Shown piece by piece: positions 1,419-42,765 of a DNA stretch of 64,000 bases. The stretch lies in NCBI GenBank assembly GCA_000091205.1, contig AP006495.2; one strand, written 5' to 3'. The position numbers and the translations under genes were made by a program. The notes beneath the pieces are model-generated. The model had not been told where the DNA came from and did not search any database. It saw only the letters and a program-made list of their open reading frames with translations. How positions within the stretch are numbered: position 1 is the first letter of the stretch; each line of letters starts with the position of its first letter. The DNA is from Cyanidioschyzon merolae (Eukaryota).

Positions 1419-2132
1419 ATGACAGGAAAGGCAGCTTGGCCAGTTTTGCTTTACGTGCCGAACTTGATTGGGTATGCGCGCATAGGGCTAGCTTTGGTCG
1501 CCTTCTGGAACGTACCGCACCCGGCAACGTTCCTGACGTTCTATACCACCGGGTTTCTGCTTGACGCTGCTGACGGCTACGCAGCACGCCTGCTCGGGCA
1601 GTCGTCGGCGTTTGGTGCTGTGCTTGACATGCTGACGGATCGATTCTCTACCGCTGGGTTGCTTCTTCTGATTGCTCTACAGGATCTAGCGAACGCTGGT
1701 TTGACATGCAACACGGTGACGTGCGCTCTGACAACGTGTTTTCGGGTTACTGTATGCGTTGCCCTGCTTATTTTGGATGCAGTGAGCCACTTTTGGCAAG
1801 TGTGTGCCGCAACCCTAGCCCGTGCGACCAGTCACAAAGCCGCAGGTCCCGGACGCCTGGTGAAGCTATATTATCGCCGAAGTGTGTTGACAACGGTATG
1901 CCTTTTTAGTGAGGTGTTTTTGTTGCTGCATTTCACGCGTGTTGCTGGTTGGTCCGCCAGGGTCGAAACTGCCAGTCATATGGAGCTGCTATGGATTGCC
2001 GCATACTACGGTTGCGCTATAGTATATGTGCTCAAACAGTTTATATCTTTGGCCCAGATCTGGAACGCCGCGGCGCTTCTCGAGCTCTCATGTTCTGGAT
2101 GCGGACACGTATCCGACGCAAAACGCCCTTAG
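1419..2132 (+). CDS. CDP-diacylglycerol--inositol 3-phosphatidyltransferase (phosphatidylinositol synthase), CDP-alcohol phosphatidyltransferase family
   Basis: The ORF 1308..2132 contains the CDP-alcohol phosphatidyltransferase signature D-G-x2-A-R-x8-G-x3-D-x3-D (DAADGYAARLLGQSSAFGAVLDMLTDR). The N-terminal stretch VLLYVPNLIGYARI resembles the start of plant/yeast PIS. The start was set to the internal Met (MTGKAAW...) at 1419 to give the typical ~235 aa length; the upstream in-frame 37 aa are Arg-rich and probably not coding. Confidence 0.72.
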   Translation: MTGKAAWPVLLYVPNLIGYARIGLALVAFWNVPHPATFLTFYTTGFLLDAADGYAARLLGQSSAFGAVLDMLTDRFSTAGLLLLIALQDLANAGLTCNTVTCALTTCFRVTVCVALLILDAVSHFWQVCAATLARATSHKAAGPGRLVKLYYRRSVLTTVCLFSEVFLLLHFTRVAGWSARVETASHMELLWIAAYYGCAIVYVLKQFISLAQIWNAAALLELSCSGCGHVSDAKRP

Positions 2133-2243
2133 CCATGAACTGCTCATCTGCGTACGAGTTTTGCTGACCGCGCAGTGCTGCTAGCGCGGGGCAGTGTATC
2201 CGGAGAACGTCACCGCTGAGCACTGAAACGACGACCTGGATAT

Positions 2244-2263
2244 TGTGTGTGTGTGTGTGTGTG
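2244..2263. repeat. (TG)10 microsatellite
   Basis: Direct reading: tgtgtgtgtgtgtgtgtgtg. Confidence 0.95.
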
Positions 2264-3645
2264 GATCCAATGCTCTGTGGACGGGCGTTCAACGAACATG
2301 CGAGTGCATCTCGTTGCGTGGAACGACGACCCTGGACCCAGAGAGGGATGGCAAGAATCACCTCTGCCGACTCGTGCATCCATTGAGACGTTATCCGGGG
2401 CCATGCGGTTTGCGTGAACGATTTGCTGGCGCCTTGCGATGTTCCGTAGTTTTTCATATAGAATAGGATCGTCTTTCCACAAGCATGCGCTTGCCGACCC
2501 CACTGCGTGACTCCAGATCATGCTGCTTGGATGAGCGCTTTACTTGCGCCTTTGCAACATTCCACAGTCCTTCGTACAGAACAGTATAACCCTGCCACAT
2601 GTATACATTGCGTATCCCAATACCCGCTCTGTTGCCTAACGTCGCTGGTGCGCCTACATGACGCGTCGTGTATGTATGTGTGTGTATGATTCCATGGCGA
2701 AATGCCTAGCGCGGACGCTCGGTGCCATTCGCATCGCTGCATTGGGAACTGGTTTACCGCGAAACACATTCTGTTTCAGACACAGGTTACCAGAGCGCGT
2801 GCCATAGCGCAGCCTCGAACAGTTCATAAATTTCGCTCTCTGAGGTCCCTCTTGCATACGATTCTACCCCGAACATCCAAGAGGTGTTTCATGCACGCAC
2901 AGGCCGAGTGAAGCCGCTGTGCGATGCTTGCCACATGCAGCGACCATCGAATATGGAAAGAAAGGTATCATCCGCTGTGTAAGGTAGATTGTCCAGTAGA
3001 ATCCGGTCGATGCGATGATGTTTGCGATGGATCCAAAGGCAATAAGGTCGAGAAGAGGCCGACACCGCTCAACTACTCTCCACAATGAAAGCGATGCTAT
3101 GCAGAGTGGCATCATCGCCTAGATGATCCACGATGCGCTTTTCAGAGCACCTGGCACTCCCGTATCCGCGTCATCGAAAGCGGAGCATTGCGCACAGGAC
3201 GCAAGGTGTCTGTCTCGGTACGTCATGATATTCACACATACCCAGGGGAATACGATTGGACTCCTCTGTCTTTGGTCACTGAAAATTTTACGCAGCGACT
3301 CCGTCCAGGGGCCCTCGTTCCATGCGCAAACGAGGCCTCATCGAGCACATCATCTGTGACCGAGTCGCGAAATAACAGCGAGTCCGATGCTCGCAACGCG
3401 GTACACAGGCGACGAGCCGTCCAGGGCTGAGCGCTCCCCTGCTCGGAGACCTCGGCGCTGGACCCCGACTGTCGCCACTGACTCTCTTCGTCCGCGTCTT
3501 TGTGACTTTCGTGCAGCCCGCGAAGCCCCTGACTGTGGTGCAGCAACGCGCTCACGTCGCCAGCAGTGATTGCATCACACGGATGCACATTGTCCACAGG
3601 GAATCACTGGAGCTTCAAGGAACTGCGCAATGAAAACATTAGGCT

Positions 3646-13049: not shown

Positions 13050-14864
13050 TTACAGGGGAATATTTCCATGTTTTTTCGGGGGCCATGGCTCCCGTAACGC
13101 CGCTGTCTCTTTGCTCGCTAGGAGGCTTAGCCCGTGTATGAGCCATCGACGCGTCAGTCTTGGTCGCACGACAGCATCGACGTAGCCACGCTGGAGTGCA
13201 ACCGAAACCGAGGATTCCTCGCTCGCTTCAGTGTCACCCGAAGTTTCGAGCGCATCCGTCGACGCAACTCGCCTGCGAAGGATCTGACTCGCTGCAGCCC
13301 TACCCATGACAGCGATATGGGCACAGGGCCAAGTTGCGTTCAGGTCGCCACGCAGGTGCTTGCTTGCCATGACACAGTACGCGCCACCGTATGCCTTACG
13401 CAAAATAATGGTCAGTTTCGGCACGGTTGCCTCCGTGTACGCATACAGCAACTTGGAGCCGTGTCGGATGATGCCGCCATGCTCTTGCTGCGTTCCGGGA
13501 AGGAAGCCTGGTACGTCAACCAGCGTCACGATCGGTATGCCGAATGCATCTGCAAAGCGCACAAACCGTGCTGCTTTGACGGCAGCGTCGGAATCGATTG
13601 CACCTGCTATGCACAGCGGTTGGTTGGCAATCAATGCCACACTGCGACCGTTCAGTCGAGCAAATGCAGTTAGCATGTTTGGAGCGAAATCGGTTTGAAT
13701 TTCTAGAAATTCTTCATCATCGACGAGGCGCATCAGAACATCCCGCATGTCGTATGGCGTATGCGCATCCGAGGGTACCAGTCGATCGAGCACGGGTTCT
13801 TCGCGGTCGCTGGGATCCTCGGTGACAACAACTTGGGGAGCGGGAACACGCGCATTCTGCGGCAGGTACGACAGCAGCTCACGGGCGAGTTGTATCACGG
13901 CAATATCGTCGTCGGCGTCTAAATGGGCAACGCCCGAGATACGACAGTGAACTGCGGCACCGCCAAGCGCCTCATCAGTTGTTTGTTCGCCTAGGGCAGC
14001 GTTCGTTACGCTGGGCCCCGTCACGAACATTCGTGCATGTCGTCTGCTCATGAGCACAAAGTCCGTGAGTGCTGGTGAGTACACTGCACCACCTGCACAC
14101 GGCCCGAGAATCAGGGAAAGCTGCGGGATGTATCCCGAAGCCAACACATTGCGTTTGAAGACCTCTGCGTAGCCTGCGAGCGAGCGCACCCCTTCCTGGA
14201 TGCGCGCTCCTCCGGAATCACAGAGAGCAACAACTGGCGCGCCGACCTCGATGGCCTTGTCGATGACCTTGCAGATCTTTGCGGCGTTGGCTTCGGAAAG
14301 AGAGCCACCAGCAACGGTGAAGTCCTGGCTGTAAACGAACACAGGTCGACCGTGAATCCGTCCAAAGCCCGACACAACGCCGTCGCCAGGAGTGCGATGT
14401 TTTCCAAGCGGATCCGAAGACGATGCATGGAGGGACTCTCTTGAACTGACCAGTCGATCAAGCTCTTGAAAAGAGCCACGATCCAGTAAAAGGTACAACC
14501 GCTCCCGAGCGGTTAGCTTTCCCTGGGCGTGCTGGCGGCGCACTCGAGCCCGGCCGCCTCCGCAAAGAGCGAACACTTCTTCCTGGTACGTCCGCTCGCC
14601 AACACCCAAGACAGACGCAAGTCCGCTCGCTACTATCTGGTCCGTGGCACCGGCTTCCGTCGAGGCAGAGTCCAGGTCCCTGTTCGTGGTTACGGAGCCG
14701 TTTACTGAACCACCCGTTCCAACGTCGTGCGGGTGTTCAGCGAAAGCGCCCCCGCCACCTGTACTGGACCTGGAGCACGCAGTGGACAGCCAAACGCGGA
14801 ACCGCTGTCGTACGGTTCTCCATGTGACGCTCTGCAGTCGCTGTGGCCAGGAGGTGTCTCGCAT
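13050..14864 (-). CDS. PCCB: Propionyl-CoA carboxylase beta chain (acyl-CoA carboxylase carboxyltransferase subunit), probably mitochondrial
   Basis: Near end-to-end similarity to PCCB. Matching stretches include QHAQGKLTARERLYLLLDRGSF, SQDFTVAGGSLSEANAAKICKV, SGGARIQEG, LGPCAGGAVYSPALTDF, FVRFADAFGIPIVTLVDVPGFLPGTQQEHGGIIRHGSKLLYAY, RKAYGGAY and the C-terminal KKHGNIPL. The start was placed at the first Met upstream of the conserved core (MRDTSWPQRL…, Arg/Ser-rich, consistent with a presequence). There is no stop codon between this Met and the upstream Fanzor-like ORF in the same frame. Confidence 0.85.
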   Translation of the reverse strand: MRDTSWPQRLQSVTWRTVRQRFRVWLSTACSRSSTGGGGAFAEHPHDVGTGGSVNGSVTTNRDLDSASTEAGATDQIVASGLASVLGVGERTYQEEVFALCGGGRARVRRQHAQGKLTARERLYLLLDRGSFQELDRLVSSRESLHASSSDPLGKHRTPGDGVVSGFGRIHGRPVFVYSQDFTVAGGSLSEANAAKICKVIDKAIEVGAPVVALCDSGGARIQEGVRSLAGYAEVFKRNVLASGYIPQLSLILGPCAGGAVYSPALTDFVLMSRRHARMFVTGPSVTNAALGEQTTDEALGGAAVHCRISGVAHLDADDDIAVIQLARELLSYLPQNARVPAPQVVVTEDPSDREEPVLDRLVPSDAHTPYDMRDVLMRLVDDEEFLEIQTDFAPNMLTAFARLNGRSVALIANQPLCIAGAIDSDAAVKAARFVRFADAFGIPIVTLVDVPGFLPGTQQEHGGIIRHGSKLLYAYTEATVPKLTIILRKAYGGAYCVMASKHLRGDLNATWPCAHIAVMGRAAASQILRRRVASTDALETSGDTEASEESSVSVALQRGYVDAVVRPRLTRRWLIHGLSLLASKETAALREPWPPKKHGNIPL

Positions 14865-16913
14865 GGCGCACACCGCTGAACGCCGTTCTAAAGTAGAACG
14901 TCGTCGGCGGTGTACAGTAGTAGCGACCGGTGCGCCTTGGACAACAAGTCGCCTACTGACGTGCAGACGCTTCCTAGGCTTTTTCGACCGGCCGCCTACT
15001 ACTGCTTCCAATTGTGTCTCATATAGTAAAACCTTAAGAGGTTGTCCAACAAAATTCTCTCGTGTCATCTCTGGAGGTCTGTTCTCCAACACCGCACATC
15101 TCCTTATATTGATGGCGGTAATAAAATCTCGGTTCACAAAATCCATCCGTTTCGTGCCGTTGGGAGTTGTACTTACTAATGCAAGCAGTCCACGAACTTT
15201 CGCTCTCCTTTCCATTTGCTCTTCCGTCAGCTGTCTATACTTTGCTATATCCTCAGGGCTCCTCTGGCACTTTTCCATCTCGACTCTCTGAAGTGTTAAC
15301 CCCTGTTCATGGTGTGTATACGATGTTCGAAACTCATCTACAGGTATCGTAACGAAACGCCTTGCACACTCCTTGTACATTCTTGTCGTTGGAGCTGGTG
15401 TAGTGCCTTTCTTGGGCACCCATCGTCCTGCTCCGTCCGCTACGACGAGCCTCTGACTTTCCTCCTCCTTCAGGGCGCTCAACTCATTCAAAAAATTCGC
15501 GAACGCCCGCTGCCTCCCACCGTATAGATTCATTCGCAGACGAGCCCACCGGGGCTTGGTATACTCCTCCCATAGCGCATCCCAGTGCGCCATGCGAACT
15601 TCCATGAATTTCCGGACAGCTTCAAAGTCCGCTCCTCGGCTCGTCACCTTACTCAAAGCTTCCAGGTGCTCTTTCATTCCTGGATTCCAAGTCTCGATTT
15701 TCTTCCTCGCATTCATGATTCCCGATTCTCGATAGTATATTGCTCTCGAGAACTTCAAAAGACGCATGTCTTTCTGACGCATGCCGCCGTCAGTGCCATC
15801 TTCCAAACGCTTGGGTACTGCGATGGTGATGATATTTGTGTTTCCGAGGTCCGCGCCAACGACAAAGTCGTTATCATGCACTTTCTGCGCGGCAGGATCC
15901 CCCTCCTTCTCATCTTTATGCATCGCCGCGCCAACGACAAAGTCGTTAGCTTGCACCTCCTGCACCACAGGATCCGCTTCCTTCCCATCTTCATCCTTCA
16001 TCACGTCAACGACAAGGTCGTTATCCTGCACCTCCTGCATCACAGCATCCGCCTCCTTCTTTTCTTCATGCTTCGTCACGGGCGCAGCCGAGGGCGGAAC
16101 TGGACGATCTTTCTTCAACCGCCGACAGAGTACACACGTGGCTACTCCATCGGTTTCGATCAACCCAGTGAATACCTTCTTCGTGCTCACTTTGAGACGT
16201 TTGAAATCGAAGCTGCTCATCCAGTACGTCTCCCGGTTTCCGCCGGTGAAGTCCTCCCTGCTTACATCGAACTCCGGACAGATATCCCTCATGATGCCGT
16301 AAAGGACGCCGGAGTCGATAGTCACAAAATGTGACTTGATCTTGCACATTGGAACCACGTTGAATCGCTTCCGCATTAGGACAGCCTTCCGTCTCTCCCA
16401 CTCTTCCTTTGTCTCTTCACTCAGCTTCATCTCCGCTTTGCGTTCGAGCTCTCGGTCCAGAAACACAAAATAGCGCAGGACGAGGCGATCGTATCTTTCC
16501 CTATCTTTTTTCAGCTCTGATATCTTGTCTGTTGGATTCGCCAGGCCCAGTATCGCACGATGCTCTTTAATAACCGCACGGATTACGGAATCCTCATTCA
16601 TGCTCTCGTTTGAAACCTTCTTCTCGACAAATTTGATCTCATCTTCATGCTTGCGATCTTTCATGATGCCATTGATAATCGCCCATTTTCCATTACGAGA
16701 GATGCCCGGGTATAGCGCAAACACTGCGCATATCATGAAACGTTCCAGGTTCATTGTAAAATGGTTCTTCACATTCGTGAGGTACTTCTTCGCCCCGAAG
16801 GTGTAAATATCCCAGTCAACCTTGTTTAGAGTACCCTCGAATCTGTAAAAGGGATGTTTTTCGTGGAGGGCGTGCACTCGCTCATCACTCGTCGAACATT
16901 TTTCCTGTGCCAT
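14865..16913 (-). CDS. TnpB/Fanzor-like RuvC-fold nuclease (eukaryotic homolog of the IS200/IS605 OrfB/TnpB RNA-guided nuclease), in frame with downstream PCCB
   Basis: The N-terminal ~660 aa of ORF 13050..16913 carry the three split-RuvC motifs in canonical order and spacing: Ruv[18 protein letters not shown]; Ruv[16 protein letters not shown]; Ruv[20 protein letters not shown] (the TnpB/Cas12 hallmark NxDxNAAxNI). The upstream region (…[29 protein letters not shown]…) resembles the TnpB WED/REC region. The CxxC…CxxC zinc finger normally found between RuvC-II and RuvC-III is absent. The segment is visibly AT-richer than flanking genes. Confidence 0.6.
15840..16080. repeat. Tandem repeat, ~76-bp unit x3, inside the Fanzor-like ORF (encodes three ~25-aa acidic repeats just before RuvC-I)
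   Basis: The DNA unit cgccgcgccaacgacaaagtcgtta… recurs at ~15851, ~15927 and ~16005. Protein repeats are [25 protein letters not shown] / [28 protein letters not shown] / [19 protein letters not shown]. Confidence 0.8.
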
Positions 16914-17989
16914 GCATGAAGTGGCGGTTGAATGTCTTGTTGAAAAATTCTCCCGGAACCTCGACTGTTTTGATGCCCATCACGTTGTCGTACATCTCCC
17001 ACGCCAAATGCATTATTCCTGAAGAAGCCTTTGTTATACTCATGGAGTAGCACGCGCCACGTTTTCTGATGGCCTCCCATGACTTTTGCTTGGAGGGATC
17101 CTTGAATTGGCGTAGAACAAATGCTTTCGCCACCATTTCTTCGTACTGTTGTCTTTCAAGTTGCATTTAGCGTCTGATTTCCAGTCTAAGGTCCCCCGTC
17201 TTTTCATGATTCTCTTGGCTTGGCGCTGTTTTTCTGGAAGCCGGCGACACTGGGCCTCCAGCATCGTCGACTTGCTTTGACATAACTTTTTTATTTTGTT
17301 CTGAAAAAGAACGCACTTTGAACGCCTCTCTTATAAAGTGCGAAAAAACACTCGAATACACTCACTTGAGCGTTGAAACCCCATTGAAATGAAAGACTGT
17401 CATATTGTGCGACTTCAGCACAGATCCAACCAGCACGTGAGACCCACACGTCAACGTATGGTCAGCATAGCGTTTCCATTCAACGCCGTGATACGCATTG
17501 TGTCGTGCATGCCAGATACGGAGCTGCGCGTATCGACCGCGCCATATAGAACAAACAACAGAAACTCACGACTACATACCAGTAAGATAACGATTTTTAC
17601 CCCCCCTCTGCAATGGACGTTAAAAGGGGGAGATGTTTCTATCATGTCGAATGTTTACCTCCTCGGCGGAAGGCCCCGCGAGCCCGACGAGTTTACCAGG
17701 CTCGTGCTTCATGCTCCCCCAGTGGCAGTTGCTATAATGAGACCCGAGCAACTCGTCCGCAATGTAATTTGTTCTTGGACTTGGATCGAGTAGCCTGCGT
17801 CTGGGCGTCGCGTTTGTCGTACTGGATTCCTCATATATCGCTTCACGCTTTTTGCAGGCAATTCCTTTGTCTCCACAAATTGCAGTCTCCCAGCATGATA
17901 ATGAATCCCGAACTCATGTCATTCGTAGCGTTCCTCGATCCGTCGCCCCCCCGTCGTATGGGAAATCCGTTCTTTCTCCATGATGCATC

Positions 17990-18130
17990 TGCACCAACGG
18001 TATAGCTGTTATTGCTGGTGCTCACGGCAGATAGTCGGCACACGATACAACGCACGAAACGACCAGTATATCCGAGAGGATATATAAGTAATGGAACTTG
18101 AAAGTAGGTTGCAGCAGCATTATGGACGCT
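17990..18130. repeat. Degenerate partial copy of repeat family B
   Basis: About 75% identity to the segment cagctgtataggggttattcagg…cgcacgaaacgaccagta…atggaacttga…atggac of copies at 8700-8860 and 50140-50300. Confidence 0.5.
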
Positions 18131-18146
18131 TTCCCGAAAACTAATC

Positions 18147-18277
18147 CCCATCCATCCATGCATCTATCTATCTACCTATCTATCTGTCTATCCATGCATG
18201 CATCTACCTATCTATCTGTCTATCCATGCATGCATCTATCTATCTATCTATCTATCTATCTGTCTATCTGTCCATCT
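18147..18277. repeat. (ATCT/ATCC/ATGC)n compound microsatellite
   Basis: Direct reading: ccatccatccatgcatctatctatctacctatctatctgtctatccatgcatgc… for ~130 bp. Confidence 0.9.
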
Positions 18278-18397
18278 GGAATCCATGGTCAATGTAAACG
18301 TCTTGGAATTGAAAAAAACAACACCAGCGGCGTCGTCGCTGCACGAATTCGCTGCCGTGACGCCGTCCAGCTGGCGACCTTTGTTTGCCGATCTTCT

Positions 18398-18539: not shown

Positions 18540-19991
18540 ATGCCGCCGCGTGAAACGAACGATCATCAAGCAGCACTGGAGTCAGCGAACGCTCATTATC
18601 CTGTCCAAGCGCATTGCGTCCAAGATATGGAAGAAGAAGAACACGATCCTAGTTTGACTTACAAAGAGGGCGTTCCGGGCCCGACCTTGTCGTTTATCTG
18701 GGGCTTGAAAGTACCGCCGGGGCGCGCTGTCGAGCACAGAGTCGAGGACGGCGAGTACGTCGTGATCTCGTCGGCCTCGCTCGGTATCAAGAAACCCAAG
18801 GGGAAACGATCTGTTTTAGTGATGGAAGACCTAGACGTGCCGAAGCGCGGTTTTTCGGACGATGAGGACTCTAGCGCGGATAGCGACGAAGTGGCTTCGG
18901 AATCTGAATCAAGTAGCGGATCGGATTCTGGATCTGGTAGTTCTGAAGCAGATGAAGCCATGGTGAACGGTATCGATGAAGACGCATCAGATTCAGAGGA
19001 TGATGAGGGCGATTCGCAGGAGTCTAGCCCCGAGAGCTCGGCCACTGGTACCGGTTCCGAAGAGTCTGCCGACGAAGCGCTCGTCTCCTCCGAGGACGAG
19101 AGCGCCTCGGAAGTATCCGATGATGAAGATGATTCTTTTCCCGACACACCAGTGATACGTAGCATCCCGGTGTGCGTGCTCCTTCCAGGAAAAGTGGAGA
19201 GCCAGTCGCTCAACCTAGAGATTGTTGGACCACGTGTACTTCATTTTCGCACGTATGGCAAGGATACCATCTACATCTCTGGACACACCGAAATCGAGAT
19301 AGACGAATATGACTCGGAAACCGATGCTGAATACGATGACGATGTGGAAATGAGCTACGAAGGTTCCGAGAGCGATGACGGGATTGCAGAGTATTCGGCA
19401 TCCGGGTCGAGCTCGGCATCGGACGATGAGCCTCTGCCGTCACCGCCGCTCTCTGGGCACAGGAGAAGCGTCCGAATTACTGAAATTATGGAGAGTGAGC
19501 AAGCTGATCGAGTGAAACATGCGGACGCGGATCGCACAGCACATCGTACCAGAGCACGATCAGGAGCGACTGCCGCAGCAACTGATGCTGGGGCGTTGAC
19601 AAGCGGTGGCGCTCAAACGTCAACACGCAAAGCCGAACAGAAGAATCGCAAAGAAGGCGCATCATCGGCTGGCGACGCGAAAACAGGGCTGTCTTCGTCT
19701 GCAGCGGACGGGACGAGCAAACGGGGCACAACTCCTCGCAGCGAATCCTCTACAGACCAGAGCCATGCAGGCACCAAGCACGTGCGTTTTCCAGAAACTT
19801 TGGAGCCAGAGGAGCGCGGGAAGAAGCGGAGCGCATCGGAGCGGAGTAGCAACCCAGCAGCAGCTGCGGCTGCTTCGAGCGTTGCCGCTGCAAATGCCCT
19901 GTCTGGTAGCGTCTCCTGTTCCACGTGCGGCAAATCGTTCAAAATGGCAAGTGCTCTTGAGCAACATATGAAAGCGAAACATGCTGCGTAG
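18540..19991 (+). CDS. HD2/HDT-type (nucleoplasmin-like) histone deacetylase homolog with C-terminal C2H2 zinc finger
   Basis: The N-terminal nucleoplasmin-like segment FIWGLKVPPGRAVEHRVEDGEYVVISSASLG parallels the plant HD2 start MEFWGIEVKSGKPV…IHVSQASLG. A long Asp/Glu/Ser-rich acidic centre follows. The C-terminal CSTCGKSFKMASALEQHMKAKHAA matches the HD2 C2H2 finger (SCGSCKKTFNSGNALESHNKAKHAA). The true start is uncertain (Met at 18540 or 18627; a short 5' exon is possible). Confidence 0.6.
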   Translation: MPPRETNDHQAALESANAHYPVQAHCVQDMEEEEHDPSLTYKEGVPGPTLSFIWGLKVPPGRAVEHRVEDGEYVVISSASLGIKKPKGKRSVLVMEDLDVPKRGFSDDEDSSADSDEVASESESSSGSDSGSGSSEADEAMVNGIDEDASDSEDDEGDSQESSPESSATGTGSEESADEALVSSEDESASEVSDDEDDSFPDTPVIRSIPVCVLLPGKVESQSLNLEIVGPRVLHFRTYGKDTIYISGHTEIEIDEYDSETDAEYDDDVEMSYEGSESDDGIAEYSASGSSSASDDEPLPSPPLSGHRRSVRITEIMESEQADRVKHADADRTAHRTRARSGATAAATDAGALTSGGAQTSTRKAEQKNRKEGASSAGDAKTGLSSSAADGTSKRGTTPRSESSTDQSHAGTKHVRFPETLEPEERGKKRSASERSSNPAAAAAASSVAAANALSGSVSCSTCGKSFKMASALEQHMKAKHAA

Positions 19992-28735: not shown

Positions 28736-29699
28736 ACCAAACCGGTACTAGCGACTCTAAGCGTTGCAGCGGGTCGCAGGCCGGGTGCCGTCGTTCACTC
28801 AAAAAACGAAACAACCCGAGTTGCCTCGCCTGCAGAAAGCGTCCAACGCAGTCCGTGGCGAGTTTCTGCTCCCCGTTAGCGCGAGAAGACTGCGCGGAGC
28901 ACGCCCTGCGGCATACAGCGCCTCGTGGCGTCGTCGATGCCGCGCCAAACACACACGCATGCGCCGGCGCGTCTGTGATGATCCTGCAGCGCCAGTTTCG
29001 ATTCTCGTGTGCTGGCATCCGATTCTTGCTGTTTTTCTGGAATGAAACAGCGTCGACGTTGCGCATGGATGCCAGATGGCTGAATGCGTATTGAAATAAA
29101 TGAAACCGCTCATTATTATTCACGTTACTTCCGAGTTCCATGACCAGTTCTCGGATGTAACTGTCGTTATATACTTTTTATCGTGTGCCGAGTTCGTGCT
29201 TGGAACACCTGCCGTAGCGCCTAAACCGCTGGTGCCGATGCATCATAACGTGTGACCTGTTTTGGCACGCAAATGAGAGCGTCAGCTCGAGATGTCCTTC
29301 ATCCGACACATGGGAACAGCGACAGCATGCTGGGGAACGAAGCAGCGAGCTCATTGGGGTATTGTGAGATCGATGGATCGAGTCCGAGAGCTGCGCACGT
29401 CTCGCTGCTGCTGTTGGTAACCGTGAGAGAGGTCACGAGTGCGCTGGTGCGGGAACCCTGGGTGTGTATGTTTCGCTCTTTACACGGATACCTCTGTGCA
29501 TGAAACCGGAACAAGGCCCAAGGGTGCGTTAGAGCTATCGATCATCACTGGGAAGTTCGCTACAATGCGCTCTCGATGCACATATCGGAATGAAATGGAA
29601 CTGGTTGACCAAACTAGGTCAGGTATGCACACGAAGGTCTGGGCGTGTGCCCGTGATGATCAAGACCAGGTTTAGCGTGCTTTTCGGCTCTCTTGACTC

Positions 29700-38074: not shown

Positions 38075-41000
38075 CGCTCAGCTTGCCTTGGTGGAGCCCG
38101 GTTCCACTCCAGTCAGTTCGGCAGTGCTGGGCAGGGCTCAAAGCGCGTCTTGTGTTAGTGCTGCACTCGCCTCTGGTGACGCACGTCGCGAATACGTGGG
38201 AGCTACGTTCCCGACACTGCGGCCTGGAAGACCCAGAAATGAACGGATTCGCACGGCTGCGAGACACGATCTCGCTGTCGCCTGTTGTTAGGTTCCGGTT
38301 GGACGCTGAGCAGTGAATACTGGAACACACAGGTGCCAGCACGCCTTTTTTGCTTTCTTTCGTTTTCCTGGTAGGTATTCAACGAAAGGATGCGTCCTGG
38401 AGCATGGAGAAATGTTGTGCACAGACGGAATACTGCCACTGCTGGTATAGGGAACGGCGAGCTTTGTTGTGTGCAAGTCATTCTTTCTGGTGTCAGCAGG
38501 TGGATGAAGCACCCTTCTCGTAGTCTTTACTCGGAACCTTGTGTAACTAGAGAGAAATTCTCAGACTCTATCTACAAGACTGGCTCCTTTTCAAGCCGTT
38601 CCACTCTGTACGCTCTGTGGGATAGACGATCGAAGAATCCAGAGGGCAAGAAGTTTCTCTGCCGTTGCGAGCTGCGGTAATGAATGGACGAGGATAGACA
38701 CAGAAGGAAGCGCTCCGCTATGCGAGGACTTGTTCCGCTAAATACAACACACTCTCGATTTCGTAGTGAAACGCCTACGCTTTGTGCTGGAGCGATAGGT
38801 GTCCGTCTCACTTTATGAGACGTTATAGGGGAAAAATAGCAGACTTCTATAAGAGTACCCTGATAGGGGTAGATGGCTGTTTGTGGGGAACAAACAGGCG
38901 AGCGTAACGGCAACATCAGCCCTGTCGGCAACTCAATGACATGGTCGCCTGCGAACCGCCAAAAGGTCACGATCATTCAGCACCTCATGCTGCGGTGAAG
39001 ACCGTTGCAACCTCTTCCCATATTCTTCTATTCTCTTCTGAGGCAACATCGCATTCCATTCCTCAAAAGCGGTCAAGAAGCATGCAGTTGAGACTGGGGT
39101 TGCGCTGTTTATCGTGCAAGCGCGCGCTCTCTCTGGATGAATCCAGTCGATGGCGTCTCTTCCGTTGTCAATGTCTTTTTGAACGCGCACTTGTCTAGGA
39201 ACGAATCGCCCGCATCCGTGAAGCCGAGGCTCTACGAAAAGTCGCCCTCTACCGTTACCAGCCTTGAACTGCAGCGATTTTTCTCTGCTCGAGCGCAGGT
39301 TGGGGCGGAAATTCGCGCGTCCTTCCGTGGCGTGCTCGCTAAGGAGAAGGTGACGAAGACATCCCCGATAAATCGTAGGTCCCGGAATCGCATACGCACG
39401 ATTCAGTGCCATCGTCTACCCCGTGCGTCTCAGTCCTAGAGCGAAAACGGATATACAGTACAATGACTACACCAACGTCGCCCTGTCAAGTGAAGGAGCA
39501 ACGCGAGGAAACCACCAGACAAGAAATAGGGTGAGCTCCCCGAGGAGAGGGCGAGAAGCGGCAGAAAGGAGCAACTACCGAAGCAGAAGGATCCGTCAGC
39601 AACGGTTTTCAAGGTCTCCCTACGAAAACTTGTTCACGGGGATGAGCTTCCAAAAAGTGGGATGCAGGACGTCATGAACGGTCGCCTAGATTCCCTCGCC
39701 TCGACGCACCTTGGCAGGTAACTTTGCGTAAGATGTTTCAAGTCAGTTTGTCAGCTGTTAACATTGCTCCAGAATTTTCCGACCAAATATTTCTGATGCA
39801 GCATAAATGATACTCGAGACAGACTATGTATTGCGCCCTGAGCGTCGGATCAGAGACTTGTGTGCAAATGCTTCCCAGAATATCTCGACGAGTTGCCGCG
39901 TTACTCCGCGATCAGAGCATCCACAGCGTACGTACCGAAAACTATCAAACCAATCTCCTCGGAAACCGTACACGGGTCCGTGTCGAGCGCTCCATGAGGA
40001 GCACCCTTTGGATATTGTACCTTCACTGTTCTGGTCCAGAAAAGTAGAGCCTGATGAATGTTATGCTTCGTAGGTCGTGAGAGGTACATGACCAGCTCGC
40101 GGCCAGTTTGTAAGAAATGACGCAACGAGATCGACGCTCGCTGCTCATCCTCCCAAGGCCATGGTGTTTTCCTCGATTATGGACCAACAGACATCGCGTC
40201 CAAGTGATATCTGAAACGTGATGCATGCCTTGCTTGCAGTTTACACTTCGAACTCTTCGTGAACAGGGCCGTCCAGCGCAAATCACACTGGCTCCCGGAA
40301 TCTGGTCAAAGTCGCCGCCTAAAGCATCTGTTCGATGTAGTCCCCGTATCGTCAGATCCAGGTTCATGATATGACGATAGGCTGAATGGTTTACTGTTCG
40401 ACGTGGTCCCCCTAGTGAGCTGCGGCTGATCTCTGCGGACAGTAACGAGGCAGTCGAAAATTTTCACGAAAAGCATTCGCGATGCTCGTTCAAGGACTCT
40501 CGTTTACTGGGAGGATACGAAAAGGTTTACCGGTACAGCAGACATCGACGGTTCAGCAGTCTATGCGTACTTCGTGAAACGAGAACCTGGGCGGAGAAAC
40601 GAGACTTCGTCTCTAGCTTTCAAGGTAGAAGAAGGGAAAGACTTGTTAGTGAGCGTGGGTTTCGGGTTGAAGAACATCATAGCCGCCGCTGTCCCTGTAA
40701 CCACAGGGGATATAGCCAAGGACCTCAAAAGGAAAACACAGGCAACTGGTCATCTATTCGGGGGATCGGTATTATCGAGACTCGGGCATGGCAGACGCCA
40801 GGGCCCATCTCGGCGATCTGAGAACTGTATCCAGCAGATGCGAATGTTTTGTACGCTTCATCCAGAGAGCGTACACAGACGCCGAAATAGCTCATGCGGA
40901 CGGTCTTTGGCAAGCGTATATGAGACTGCACTCGGGTAGCTAACGATCTGCGTTCGACGGAGGCAAGAAGCGTGCATTTGCCAATCTGCTGGATGCATTG

Positions 41001-42765
41001 GAAAATTGGAACGAGCGCAAAGTCGTGTCGTTTGCCACTGATGGTAACCTATCCCAGTGGACGTGCTGAGGTGCGCGAATGCTGCACGCCGCTTCCTTCG
41101 ACGAGGGCGTACATGGAATGCAGGCATCGATCCTGCACGAATACCGTCGATTAGGTCAGGTCGAAATGAACGAATCACGAGCATGTGCGCATGCTGAAAC
41201 CAGCAGAGAAGAGGAGCGTGAAACACAGACCAGAGCATGAGATGGTATACGGCACCCAGACGGAACGTAAGATGATGAAGTAATCGAATGGAAGAGGCTT
41301 GCAGTAGTATGATCCCAATGGCTCATATGCCAGCAGGCGCTGTCGGCTTCGACATTTGAACGCCTCGATCAACATCCGGATATGTGTACTGGTTCTGGCC
41401 CGTCCACTGACTCTGTGTCAAATGAAGTGTCGATGTGATACTTTCGTATCCTGAATGGGCATTGTGCTGAAACGCATAAGACGTGCGATGAAATCAAGAC
41501 TAGGAGAGAGGGGCATCGGATTCTCGCCCCAACCAAAGCCGCTGGAATGGTGCAGTTCTGGAATCCAACGAGCCTGAAGCGTCGCATATGTGCACCGGCA
41601 ACTGTTGTCTTCGGTTCTGGTGAACAATAATGGTGTTGGGGTATTTGCTATCATTGAGTACACTGCCGAAATTGGTGTACAATGGTTGCAAACCAAGTTC
41701 ATGAACACTTGTAGATGCGTTTTAGTCGGTTGGCGGGCGTCAAATCATCGAGCTCAAGTCGATTTGCCAGTGACCGGAATAGACCGCGCCCGTACCCCGA
41801 CCCGGTGCAGAGCGTATGAACTTAGGTAGCCGCAACCGCAGCTGCACCTACCCCAGTCGCGGAGCGCTGTCGGAGACGTTTAGAGCACAGACGCTATCAA
41901 GCTTGCAGCCACATTCAGTACAAGAAGCGCGCCGCTTGTCGACACCGGGCCCACGTTCGACTGCGGCATATGCAATACAAGTTGTACTTCACGCTGATCG
42001 CACGCCCAACCGGGGGGAACTGTGGCGCCTCACGACCAGTGACGCACACCAGGATATCGAGAGGTGTACGTGTGTAGCCTCTTCTCTGGTCTATGCGGTA
42101 ACGCGGGACTATATATGGATATTGCGCCAGCGGCTTTGAGTTGCATTGCGGCATGGAATGCAGTGCGCGTTGGTGTCACCCCATGCTCACGGTAAGCCTG
42201 GAGCAGAGAGCACTCGGCTTGTAACCTCTGCAACACGAAACACTGTTTCTTCGATGGTCCTACGCGAATCCGAGCAACGCCCTGGTTCGCTTTCTGAACG
42301 CCAGCTGTGGCTCGCTGTCGCGGTTGTACCGCGGTCGGAGCGTATCCGTTTACGCATGAGCGCATGAGCCTGCGCATGCAGCGTTCTGCTCGGCCAGCAG
42401 TTCCATATGCAATTCCAAAGCGCATCCTTTTTGTATTTGCCGGGCGCATGGCATGCCTTTCGGCCGGTGTGGCACGGACGTGGTGAGCTCCCGGGTAGGA
42501 CGCATCAAACCTGCGAAATGACAACGTATTTGCATCTTTCTATGCAAGCGCACCTCATCCGGCACGACCGCCGCAGCACCTGCCACGGATCATGGCAACT
42601 TGTCCGGTGTACTGCAATCTCTATTCAACTGGCATTCGGCGGCTTCAACGGTAACGCATGTGAAGCATGCCCAACTATCTGCCGCATCACACCTTTGAGG
42701 CAAGACCGTTGTCGCGTTTTATCACCGATACCACGCATGCAAAGCGTATAAGGTCCGGTGTGTGC

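Follow-up and report, generated by a model that had tools for sequence, protein, structure and literature searches.

The reading frame that joins a Fanzor1 sequence to PCCB in Cyanidioschyzon merolae very probably stems from a decayed CMe-1A copy without its stop codon

Introduction

Does the eukaryote Cyanidioschyzon merolae encode a protein in which an RNA-guided nuclease is fused to a carboxyltransferase of core metabolism? The question is raised by a stretch of 64,000 nucleotides of contig AP006495.2 (assembly GCA_000091205.1), hereafter the window, the minus strand of which carries at 13050..16913 a single open reading frame (ORF) of 1287 codons, with no break in the ORF listing. An earlier note on this DNA had described the frame as two unrelated modules, a TnpB/Fanzor-type RuvC nuclease and the beta subunit of propionyl-CoA carboxylase (PCCB), and had left the choice between a TnpB-family element lying just upstream of PCCB and sharing its orientation and frame, and a genuine nuclease-carboxyltransferase chimera. 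We argue here that the frame is very probably an accident: a dead copy of the transposable element CMe-1A, which has lost its stop codon, lies upstream of PCCB, and PCCB is made from its own ATG at 14864.

Results

Two modules in one frame

The single frame and both of its modules are as the earlier note had them. The RuvC-I motif GADLG is located at aa 353-357 of the 1287-codon ORF, the RuvC-II motif DEFRTS at aa 526-531 and the RuvC-III motif at aa 594-603, with the D/E/D residues kept (coordinates of all features are collected in Table 1). The carboxyltransferase part, complete and with a Met of its own, opens at the in-frame Met aa 684 (ATG 14864-14862). ORF residues 684-1287 are identical to the annotated mitochondrial PCCB precursor of C. 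merolae (BAM80995.1 / XP_005537031.1), and aa 793-1270 match Pfam Carboxyl_trans (PF01039) with E=2.8e-164, over model positions 1-483 of 493. The 1287-aa product has no entry in any collection searched. Over 15001-18000 the G+C content is ~0.49, with a strong skew, against ~0.57-0.60 around it; this drop was the first hint of foreign DNA reaching well 5' of the ORF start.

A decayed copy of CMe-1A upstream of PCCB

CMe-1A was described by Bao & Jurka 2013 (Mob DNA 4:12, PMC3627910) as a Fanzor1 family in C. merolae, the single Fanzor family listed for that genome. It comprises ~150 copies, each ~80% identical to a ~3 kb consensus, which has no terminal inverted repeats (TIRs); target-site duplications (TSDs) could not be determined in that description, and the 5' 635 bp of the element correspond to a separate repeat, TE-N2_CMe, of ~70 copies (PMC3627910). 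The consensus given in the supplement of PMC3627910 has 3169 bp and encodes a 734-aa protein. The window holds a single full-length copy, ~85% identical to CMe-1A: in blastn with the consensus, positions 7-38 fall on window 18305-18274, positions 43-2193 on 18153-16004 (81% identity) and positions 2117-3169 on 15930-14881 (86% identity). The TnpB-family element that the earlier note had placed just upstream of PCCB is thus this copy, in the orientation and frame proposed. Its implied novelty falls away, as the element and its presence in the C. merolae genome have been known since the 2013 description of CMe-1A / Fanzor1 CMe-1 (PMC3627910).

A metagenome scan recovered 193 related stretches, from which 80 loci were fetched; metagenome contigs, rather than the reference genome, are the source of most copies analysed here. 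In most of the ~80 copies the homology to the window breaks off within 14878-14880, and the sharp 3' limit of the element is defined by these further copies, as the earlier note had suggested. At the other side the 5' terminus of the window copy is common to the class-A copies, the class reaching ~18311-18322. A protein search with aa 1-683 returned 54 relatives, mostly 52-90% identical, from a handful of Joint Genome Institute (JGI) metagenomes; the contigs of two of them carry unrelated flanking genes, and their DNA homology to the window stops abruptly. By all these comparisons the upstream module is evidently a repeated mobile element.

With a nonsense codon, a +1 frameshift and DLG in place of DPG in RuvC-I, the window copy is evidently a pseudogene, no longer able to encode the full Fanzor1 protein. 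The intact nuclease that the earlier note implied is not found, given these defects and the loss of the stop codon. Some 130 residues from the N-terminus of the family protein are missing from the 1287-aa ORF. Conserved residues are also altered in the window copy (GADPG to GADLG, AYGAG to ADGAG and NAAINI to ITAINI), and 9 nt have been deleted in frame compared with the consensus ORF. Not one of the 80 fetched loci contains a CMe-1 ORF that is fully intact. One environmental copy, L017 (1-3108), is 98.5% identical to window 17979-14879 and diverges exactly at the element 3' end, beyond which it has a Nudix-like gene. When derived changes are polarised against the consensus, the window lineage shows 13 nonsynonymous and 7 synonymous changes and L017 shows 1 and 5, respectively; these counts are small, with 9 sites ambiguous, the differences clustered and L017 maybe an assembly mosaic. 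The substitution pattern of the window copy is consistent with relaxed constraint. L017 itself may have arisen very recently, by duplication of a copy that already carried the frameshift, or may be a chimera of the metagenome assembly.

Assignment to Fanzor1

No TnpB, OrfB or Cas12f match was obtained when the N-terminal module and its homologs were scanned with Pfam and NCBIfam models, the hints in those scans being limited to a sub-threshold Cas12f1-like_TNB hit (E=0.23) and a weak precomputed label, DUF8286, which is the only Pfam label borne by the 54 protein relatives. Since curated models miss the protein, a deeper profile was needed for family assignment. A single-sequence phmmer search against PDB returned nothing relevant. 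With a 14-sequence profile, marginal matches to the RuvC-I motif of IscB were obtained (E 0.04-0.09), and a specific IscB relationship was considered; it was dropped after a 100-sequence profile had matched Fanzor1.

In hmmsearch against PDB sequences the 100-sequence profile retrieved PpFz1 from Parasitella (E=2.3e-25), SpuFz1 from Spizellomyces (3.3e-20) and GtFz1 from Guillardia (6.2e-14). The family motifs DPG, DE(F/Y)xTS and NRD align with those of the Fanzor1 chains, where the second one reads DEFRTS in PpFz1 and DEYKTS in SpuFz1, and in the 100-sequence family alignment (A4) D484-P485-G486, E656 and R724-D725 are nearly invariant. A confident AlphaFold (AF2) model (mean pLDDT 83.6, pTM 0.82) was built for P0001, which belongs to the family and shares 72% identity with the window copy. 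Foldseek searches of PDB with this model placed SpuFz, PpFz and GtFz on top, with E 1.5e-16 to 4.6e-14 and Cas12 proteins next; the TM score to SpuFz is 0.72-0.74 (normalised to target). The sole disordered stretch of the model is the 25-aa repeat linker, and the model residues 380-469, equivalent to the repeat array, in which the window copy has a 150-nt insertion compared with the consensus, have pLDDT <50. The underlying 75-nt repeat (KHE[ED]KKEA..Q.V.DND..V) occurs once in the consensus, three times in the window and four to six times in other copies (P0001, P0007).

Fanzor proteins are distinguished by DPG in RuvC-I, where TnpB has D-hydrophobic-G, and by where the glutamate of RuvC-II is located (Yoon et al. 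2023, PMC10711439). The CMe-1 family shows the DPG signature, the DLG of the window copy being derived, and the E656 and D725 of the family D-E-D triad are retained in the window copy as DEFRTS and NRDF. As judged from the profile and the structure model, the CMe-1 family is placed firmly with Fanzor1, which upholds the TnpB/Fanzor membership proposed in the earlier note for the N-terminal module, and the intact CMe-1 protein is predicted by homology to be an omega-RNA-guided RuvC endonuclease.

A CxxC...CxxC zinc finger was sought between RuvC-II and RuvC-III, and no CxxC pairs were found in CMe-1 or its distant relatives; the family consensus of this region is DEFRTS....VRGLLWC.ST....KFVNRD. 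The zinc finger is not strictly defining, because it is found in many, not all, TnpB/Fanzor members (Yoon et al., PMC10711439). In an exhaustive profile search, 3851 cluster representatives passed a threshold of E<=1e-3, and 528 of E<=1e-30. CMe-1 is part of a very large zinc-finger-less clade, which bears the Pfam label DUF8286 alone and is missed by the curated TnpB models.

The start codon of PCCB and the insertion site

The closest PCCB orthologs, both with collinear surroundings, are found in Cyanidiococcus yangmingshanensis (590 aa, 74% identical) and Cyanidium caldarium (577 aa, 64% identical), and their N-terminal extensions resemble that of C. merolae PCCB. In Cyanidiococcus the locus (L084) has SIR2, an NPL-domain gene, PCCB and Leo1 in the order of the window. 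The ATG at 14864 is, to judge from this comparison, the ancestral start codon, because the PCCB proteins of C. merolae and Cyanidiococcus align from the same Met1; W6 and W15 are conserved.

The NPL-PCCB spacer of Cyanidiococcus has 993 nt, and no CMe-1 similarity was found in it at the nucleotide or protein level. The joined C. merolae flanks, 5' ...GTTGTTTTTTTC + 3' CAGCGGTGTGCGCCATG, align with the sister sequence ...GCTGATTTCCAGCCACGT-CTCAATG, which has no interruption, and eight bases in a row (TTTCCAGC) are identical over the junction; likewise, uninterrupted Cyanidiococcus ...GATTTCCAGCC... matches joined C. merolae ...TTTTC+CAGCGG.... Because the joined flanks match the empty site of the sister species, the insertion of CMe-1A was precise, at TTTC/CAGC, with no TSD and 3' of a T-rich motif. 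T-rich 5' flanks are present at other copies too, and when nine full-length copies were compared in their flanks, no TSD was found. An environmental empty site at PCCB was not found among the recovered contigs; P0213/L083 retains the element end and a low-quality contig end.

In IS200/IS605 TnpB elements the motif at the left end is the target-adjacent motif (TAM), and the sequence past the right end is the guide (PMC10432273, PMC10711439). CMe-1A shows this insertion geometry at PCCB, with TTTC as the putative TAM. The PCCB locus provides a clean natural example of Fanzor1 insertion without TSD, which was not resolvable in the original description. The insertion-site geometry and the gene-proximal placement discussed below are modest leads that may be new.

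Some further regularities were noticed at the ends of other copies. L024, L046, L067 and others share 12-14 nt past the nominal 3' end (TGTTTCCAGGGG), many CMe-1A 3' flanks open with TG(T/C)TG, and the 3' flank of one copy (TTTGCTGTTGC) reappears in the 5' flank of another. These features suggest either that the terminus is slightly longer in some subfamilies or that certain target sequences are preferred.

Why the frame runs into PCCB

The fate of the stop codon was surveyed in 26 non-redundant CMe-1A copies. TAG or TAA occupies the canonical position in 16/26 and is lost in 10/26. In nine of the ten stop-less copies the frame continues beyond the element, as the 60-nt tail behind the stop position has no in-frame stop, and host ATGs located just past element ends are in the Fanzor frame in 5/13 cases, which is chance level. 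On these counts an open frame across the junction is not statistically remarkable, and is one expected outcome of element decay. A similar case is seen at L021:4143-6548, where an 801-codon ORF joins the last 92 Fanzor residues to glycerol-3-phosphate (G3P) dehydrogenase; the fused form was also predicted by the JGI gene caller (P0336, 801 aa).

The history of the locus is reconstructed as follows. An old CMe-1A copy inserted at TTTC/CAGC, in PCCB orientation, into the divergent NPL-PCCB promoter region, and did so after the split from Cyanidiococcus. This copy lost its Fanzor1 coding capacity and its own stop codon. The 60-nt tail and the 14-nt host spacer without in-frame stop, followed by a PCCB ATG that lies in frame by chance, yield the 1287-codon ORF. 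PCCB would be translated from the ancestral ATG as a 604-aa mitochondrial precursor, and the fusion would stay untranslated. In intact family members the guide-RNA scaffold would be expected in the structured 3' end, reading into flanking DNA.

A bifunctional chimera would require translation of all 1287 aa into one polypeptide, with a truncated Fanzor nuclease linked to the PCCB carboxyltransferase. The ORF without interruption and the retained D/E/D residues speak for it, as does an open junction common to the environmental haplotypes. We consider it extremely improbable. The start of the nuclease part is missing and replaced by a fortuitous out-of-frame ATG, its DPG motif is mutated, the junction was born of losing a stop codon that most copies keep, and in-frame adjacency is at chance level family-wide. 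The ancestral start and the presequence-like N-terminus of PCCB are shared with the sister species, which has no element, and the annotated protein is the 604-aa form. Moreover, a 683-aa N-terminal extension would bury the segment annotated as mitochondrial presequence, an argument that rests on established knowledge of presequence import. The chimera that the earlier note had entertained is therefore not supported, and the fusion that it flagged is not worth pursuing as a new enzyme, stop loss being seen in about a third of the family copies.

Several observations weigh against the explanation by a dead copy with a lost stop. The junction is open in all environmental haplotypes recovered at the PCCB locus, and these were called as 680-875 aa proteins running into the element. 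The haplotypes are near-identical and their upstream parts look like mosaics of different copies, and as a sign of selection on the junction they were set aside. For the pair of window copy and L017, the unpolarised ratio of nonsynonymous to synonymous rates (dN/dS) is 0.30, below neutral; polarisation puts the constraint mostly on the L017 lineage. Finally, the element is not inert for PCCB expression: with spacings as short as the 14 nt at PCCB, the 5' ends of host mRNAs have to lie within the element or upstream of it. The accidental read-through from a dead CMe-1A copy is nevertheless held with high confidence, and what its 3' end may do is considered separately below.

A structured 3' end

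For the 146 nt at the end of the window copy the minimum free energy of folding is -60.6 kcal/mol (z=-3.98 vs shuffles), and a consensus fold of -47 kcal/mol, with a long closing stem, internal hairpins and a terminal hairpin, was obtained for the last 148 alignment columns of 26 copies. This fold replaced an RNAalifold result for the whole 405-column 3' alignment, which had been weak and mostly long-range (-14 kcal/mol). On the consensus structure 86% of the cells are paired, vs 33-59% with slid partners. Double changes occur in 7 pairs only, the covariation score is 0.130 vs 0.115 for shuffles, and conservation of the post-stop tail is 0.74 vs 0.73 at third codon positions. Covariation was considered as proof of an omega-RNA and found insufficient, the score being barely above shuffles and the tail no better kept than third codon positions. 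Scans of the window with Rfam (gathering thresholds) and for tRNAs gave no match; the bacterial promoter/terminator scan of the window is not meaningful for a eukaryote. The 3' structure itself is real in the sequence, and a role as guide-RNA scaffold may be proposed by analogy with other Fanzors. The earlier note had the element 3' end, as the usual site of the guide-RNA scaffold, overlap the PCCB 5' region; a structured end does lie there and stops 14 nt short of the PCCB ATG.

In characterised Fanzors the omega-RNA is made from the element 3' end and uses the flank as guide (PMC10432273). Accordingly worded for this locus, the proposal would be that the 3' end of the window copy is transcribed as an omega-RNA, with the PCCB start (CAGCGGTGTGCGCCATGCGA...) as guide, and is used in trans by Fanzor1 from intact copies. 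It draws on the strong fold of the 3' 146 nt, which is common to the copies, on the precedent just cited and on the insertion 3' of the T-rich TTTC, as in the TAM logic of IS200/IS605. The weak covariation, the lack of excess conservation and of an Rfam match, and the absence of a fully intact CMe-1 ORF from the 80 fetched loci make it improbable.

Element ends beside host start codons

The position of element 3' ends relative to host genes was examined in the 22 unique copies with enough flank, a host start being taken as the first ATG of a same-strand ORF >=150 aa and the null model following the same rule. In 12 of the 22 a same-strand host ATG lies 1-131 nt past the element 3' end, against 4.9% for random pairs of intergenic position and strand drawn from the same loci (binomial p ~1e-10). 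The distances from element end to first ATG are 1 nt for G3P dehydrogenase (L021), 14 nt for PCCB (window), 16 nt for a protoporphyrinogen-oxidase-like gene (L058), 18 nt for an unnamed host ORF (L049), 52 nt for a UFD1-like gene (L075), 64 nt for an RNase P subunit-like gene (L016), 67 nt for a NOP2/Sun-like gene (L026), 68 nt for a signal-peptide-peptidase-like gene (L069), 93 nt for ATP synthase beta (L019), 112 nt for a phosphoglucomutase-like gene (L005), 127 nt for an unnamed host ORF (L053) and 130 nt for a COQ6-like gene (L067); except for PCCB and G3P dehydrogenase, these gene names are putative and were read from the sequence. At L021, G3P dehydrogenase orthologs of 678-680 aa span 98-99% of the ORF. 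In a related lineage (L085) the G3P dehydrogenase gene has no element upstream and the homology starts at its third Met, so that the L021 element lies <=19 nt from the conserved start.

These data could be explained by exaptation, in which the last ~150 nt of the element, with a TATA-like box and the structured segment, serve as promoter and/or 5' leader of PCCB and many other host genes. Such a role is compatible with the dead-element explanation of the frame. It would account for the 14 nt that alone separate the element from the PCCB ATG, where the sister species has a spacer of 993 nt without element, for the excess of same-strand ORFs behind element ends and for the situation at the G3P dehydrogenase locus; furthermore, CTATATGAG is nearly invariant, third codon positions included. 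The tail, however, is conserved no more than third codon positions, most copies come from metagenome contigs, and the starts are defined as first ATGs of ORFs >=150 aa. An insertion preference for nucleosome-free 5' regions could also explain the pattern, with transcripts starting further upstream, and one reading of the placement is precisely such a preference, acting together with selection on the orientation of the element. We regard exaptation as a serious possibility, with the balance tipped slightly against it. The broader proposal, that CMe-1A 3' ends are placed non-randomly and in sense upstream of host starts and that host genes are transcribed from inside the transposon, possibly from a guide-RNA promoter and with an omega-RNA-like leader, is more doubtful and is put forward tentatively. 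If true, it would tie a eukaryotic RNA-guided nuclease element to promoter and 5' untranslated region function of core metabolic genes. Confirmed placement would bear on the choice of insertion sites by Fanzor elements, or their survival there, in a very compact genome, and on host promoter use.

Modules, remnants and neighbouring features

All Fanzor copies share sequence from ~17545, including the conserved ATG (17283) and a TATA-like stretch. On the 5' side of this boundary, in the equivalents of window 17545-17730, at least four distinct, internally conserved 5' sequence classes were observed among Fanzor units, and the TE-N2-like 5' module is also found alone and in both orientations at other loci. 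With several 5' classes and TE-N2-like modules in both orientations, the family is therefore modular.

The window contains solo TE-N2_CMe copies at 8921-8279 (-), 50359-49719 (-) and 29042-29309 (+, partial). Near the first two, divergent ORFs start 211 and 267 nt from the 5' ends, respectively, distances similar to the 229 nt for the copy at the PCCB locus. A CMe-1A remnant with an internal deletion, joining consensus 869-971 to 2838-3092, lies at 52631-52161 (-), and a frameshifted remnant of a far more divergent Fanzor1-like gene, with 25-35% aa identity to CMe-1 and distant members, at ~40187-41451 (+). The GATA/ATCT microsatellite of the 5' module is longer and differently arranged in a near-identical environmental contig (L054).

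Table 1 Features of the CMe-1A copy and the PCCB locus in the window (TRF, Tandem Repeats Finder)
Feature	Coordinates	Strand	Remarks
NPL-domain ortholog, divergent neighbour	18540..19991	+	ATG 229 nt from element 5' end; collinear with the L084 gene bearing PF17800 NPL
CMe-1A copy, full-length but decayed	14879..18311	-	5' end ~18311/18310; 3' end ...GAACGGCGTT at 14879
5' module, TE-N2_CMe (consensus positions 1-635)	17560..18311	-	Inner boundary approximate
(ATCT/GATA)n microsatellite	18162..18277		Inside 5' module; TRF period 4, 29 copies; not in consensus or other copies
Family start codon of Fanzor1 ORF (MSKQVDD...)	17281..17283	-	ATG kept in 42 aligned copies; aligns with consensus position 906
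Premature stop TAA	17167..17169	-	Consensus CAA, codon 42; from consensus-frame translation and alignment
ATG of the 1287-codon ORF	16911..16913	-	Fortuitous; first 6 codons outside Fanzor frame (family start at 17283)
+1 nucleotide insertion (frameshift)	16895	-	Accurate within a few nt; alignment of window, L017 and L013 with consensus
Three tandem 75-nt (25-aa) repeats	15854..16080	-	Disordered linker before RuvC-I; one in consensus; TRF
RuvC-I motif GADLG	15843..15857	-	Family GADPG; P-to-L derived in window copy
RuvC-II motif DEFRTS	15321..15338	-	Glutamate at Fanzor-type position (E656 nearly invariant)
RuvC-III motif	15105..15134	-	Family motif NRDFNAAINI
TATA-like CTATATGAG	15018..15026	-	Nearly invariant (alignment A5); ~15-25 nt upstream of structured segment; unique window match; promoter role hypothetical
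Structured 3' terminus	14879..15005	-	Long stem enclosing hairpins, terminal hairpin; candidate omega-RNA scaffold or transposon end
CAA in place of family stop codon (TAG to CAA)	14937..14939	-	Alignment with copies and consensus
Host spacer CAGCGGTGTGCGCC	14865..14878	-	14 nt, element end to PCCB ATG; homologous to sister CAGCCACGTCTCA directly before its ATG
PCCB, mitochondrial propionyl-CoA carboxylase beta subunit precursor	13050..14864	-	604 aa + stop; Carboxyl_trans match; exact match to annotated protein

Comparison with known systems

Bacterial TnpB of IS200/IS605 (e.g., ISDra2) resembles CMe-1 in being a RuvC D-E-D nuclease encoded by the transposon right end, in an element with no TIRs and no TSD that is inserted 3' of a short motif (TTTC here) and has a structured end where the guide RNA is made (PMC10432273; PMC10711439). 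CMe-1 differs from it in the eukaryotic host, the larger protein (734 aa), and the Fanzor-type DPG and shifted glutamate (PMC10711439); unlike in IS200/IS605, no TnpA transposase was found in the CMe-1A element, and the Pfam TnpB models do not match the CMe-1 protein. With the solved Fanzor1 structures of SpuFz1 (8GKH), PpFz1 (9CF0) and GtFz1 (9CER) CMe-1 shares the fold and the DPG, DE(F/Y)xTS and NRD motifs, as well as the location of the gene on the 3' side of the transposon and the structured 3' end, whereas identity is 12-15%, the zinc finger is absent and a variable 25-aa tandem-repeat linker is present in CMe-1. The published CMe-1A is from the same genome, and the window copy agrees with it in the full 3169-bp consensus, the TE-N2_CMe 5' module, the ORF and the lack of TIRs; it differs by the nonsense codon, the frameshift, the lost stop, two extra 75-nt repeats and the microsatellite insertion.

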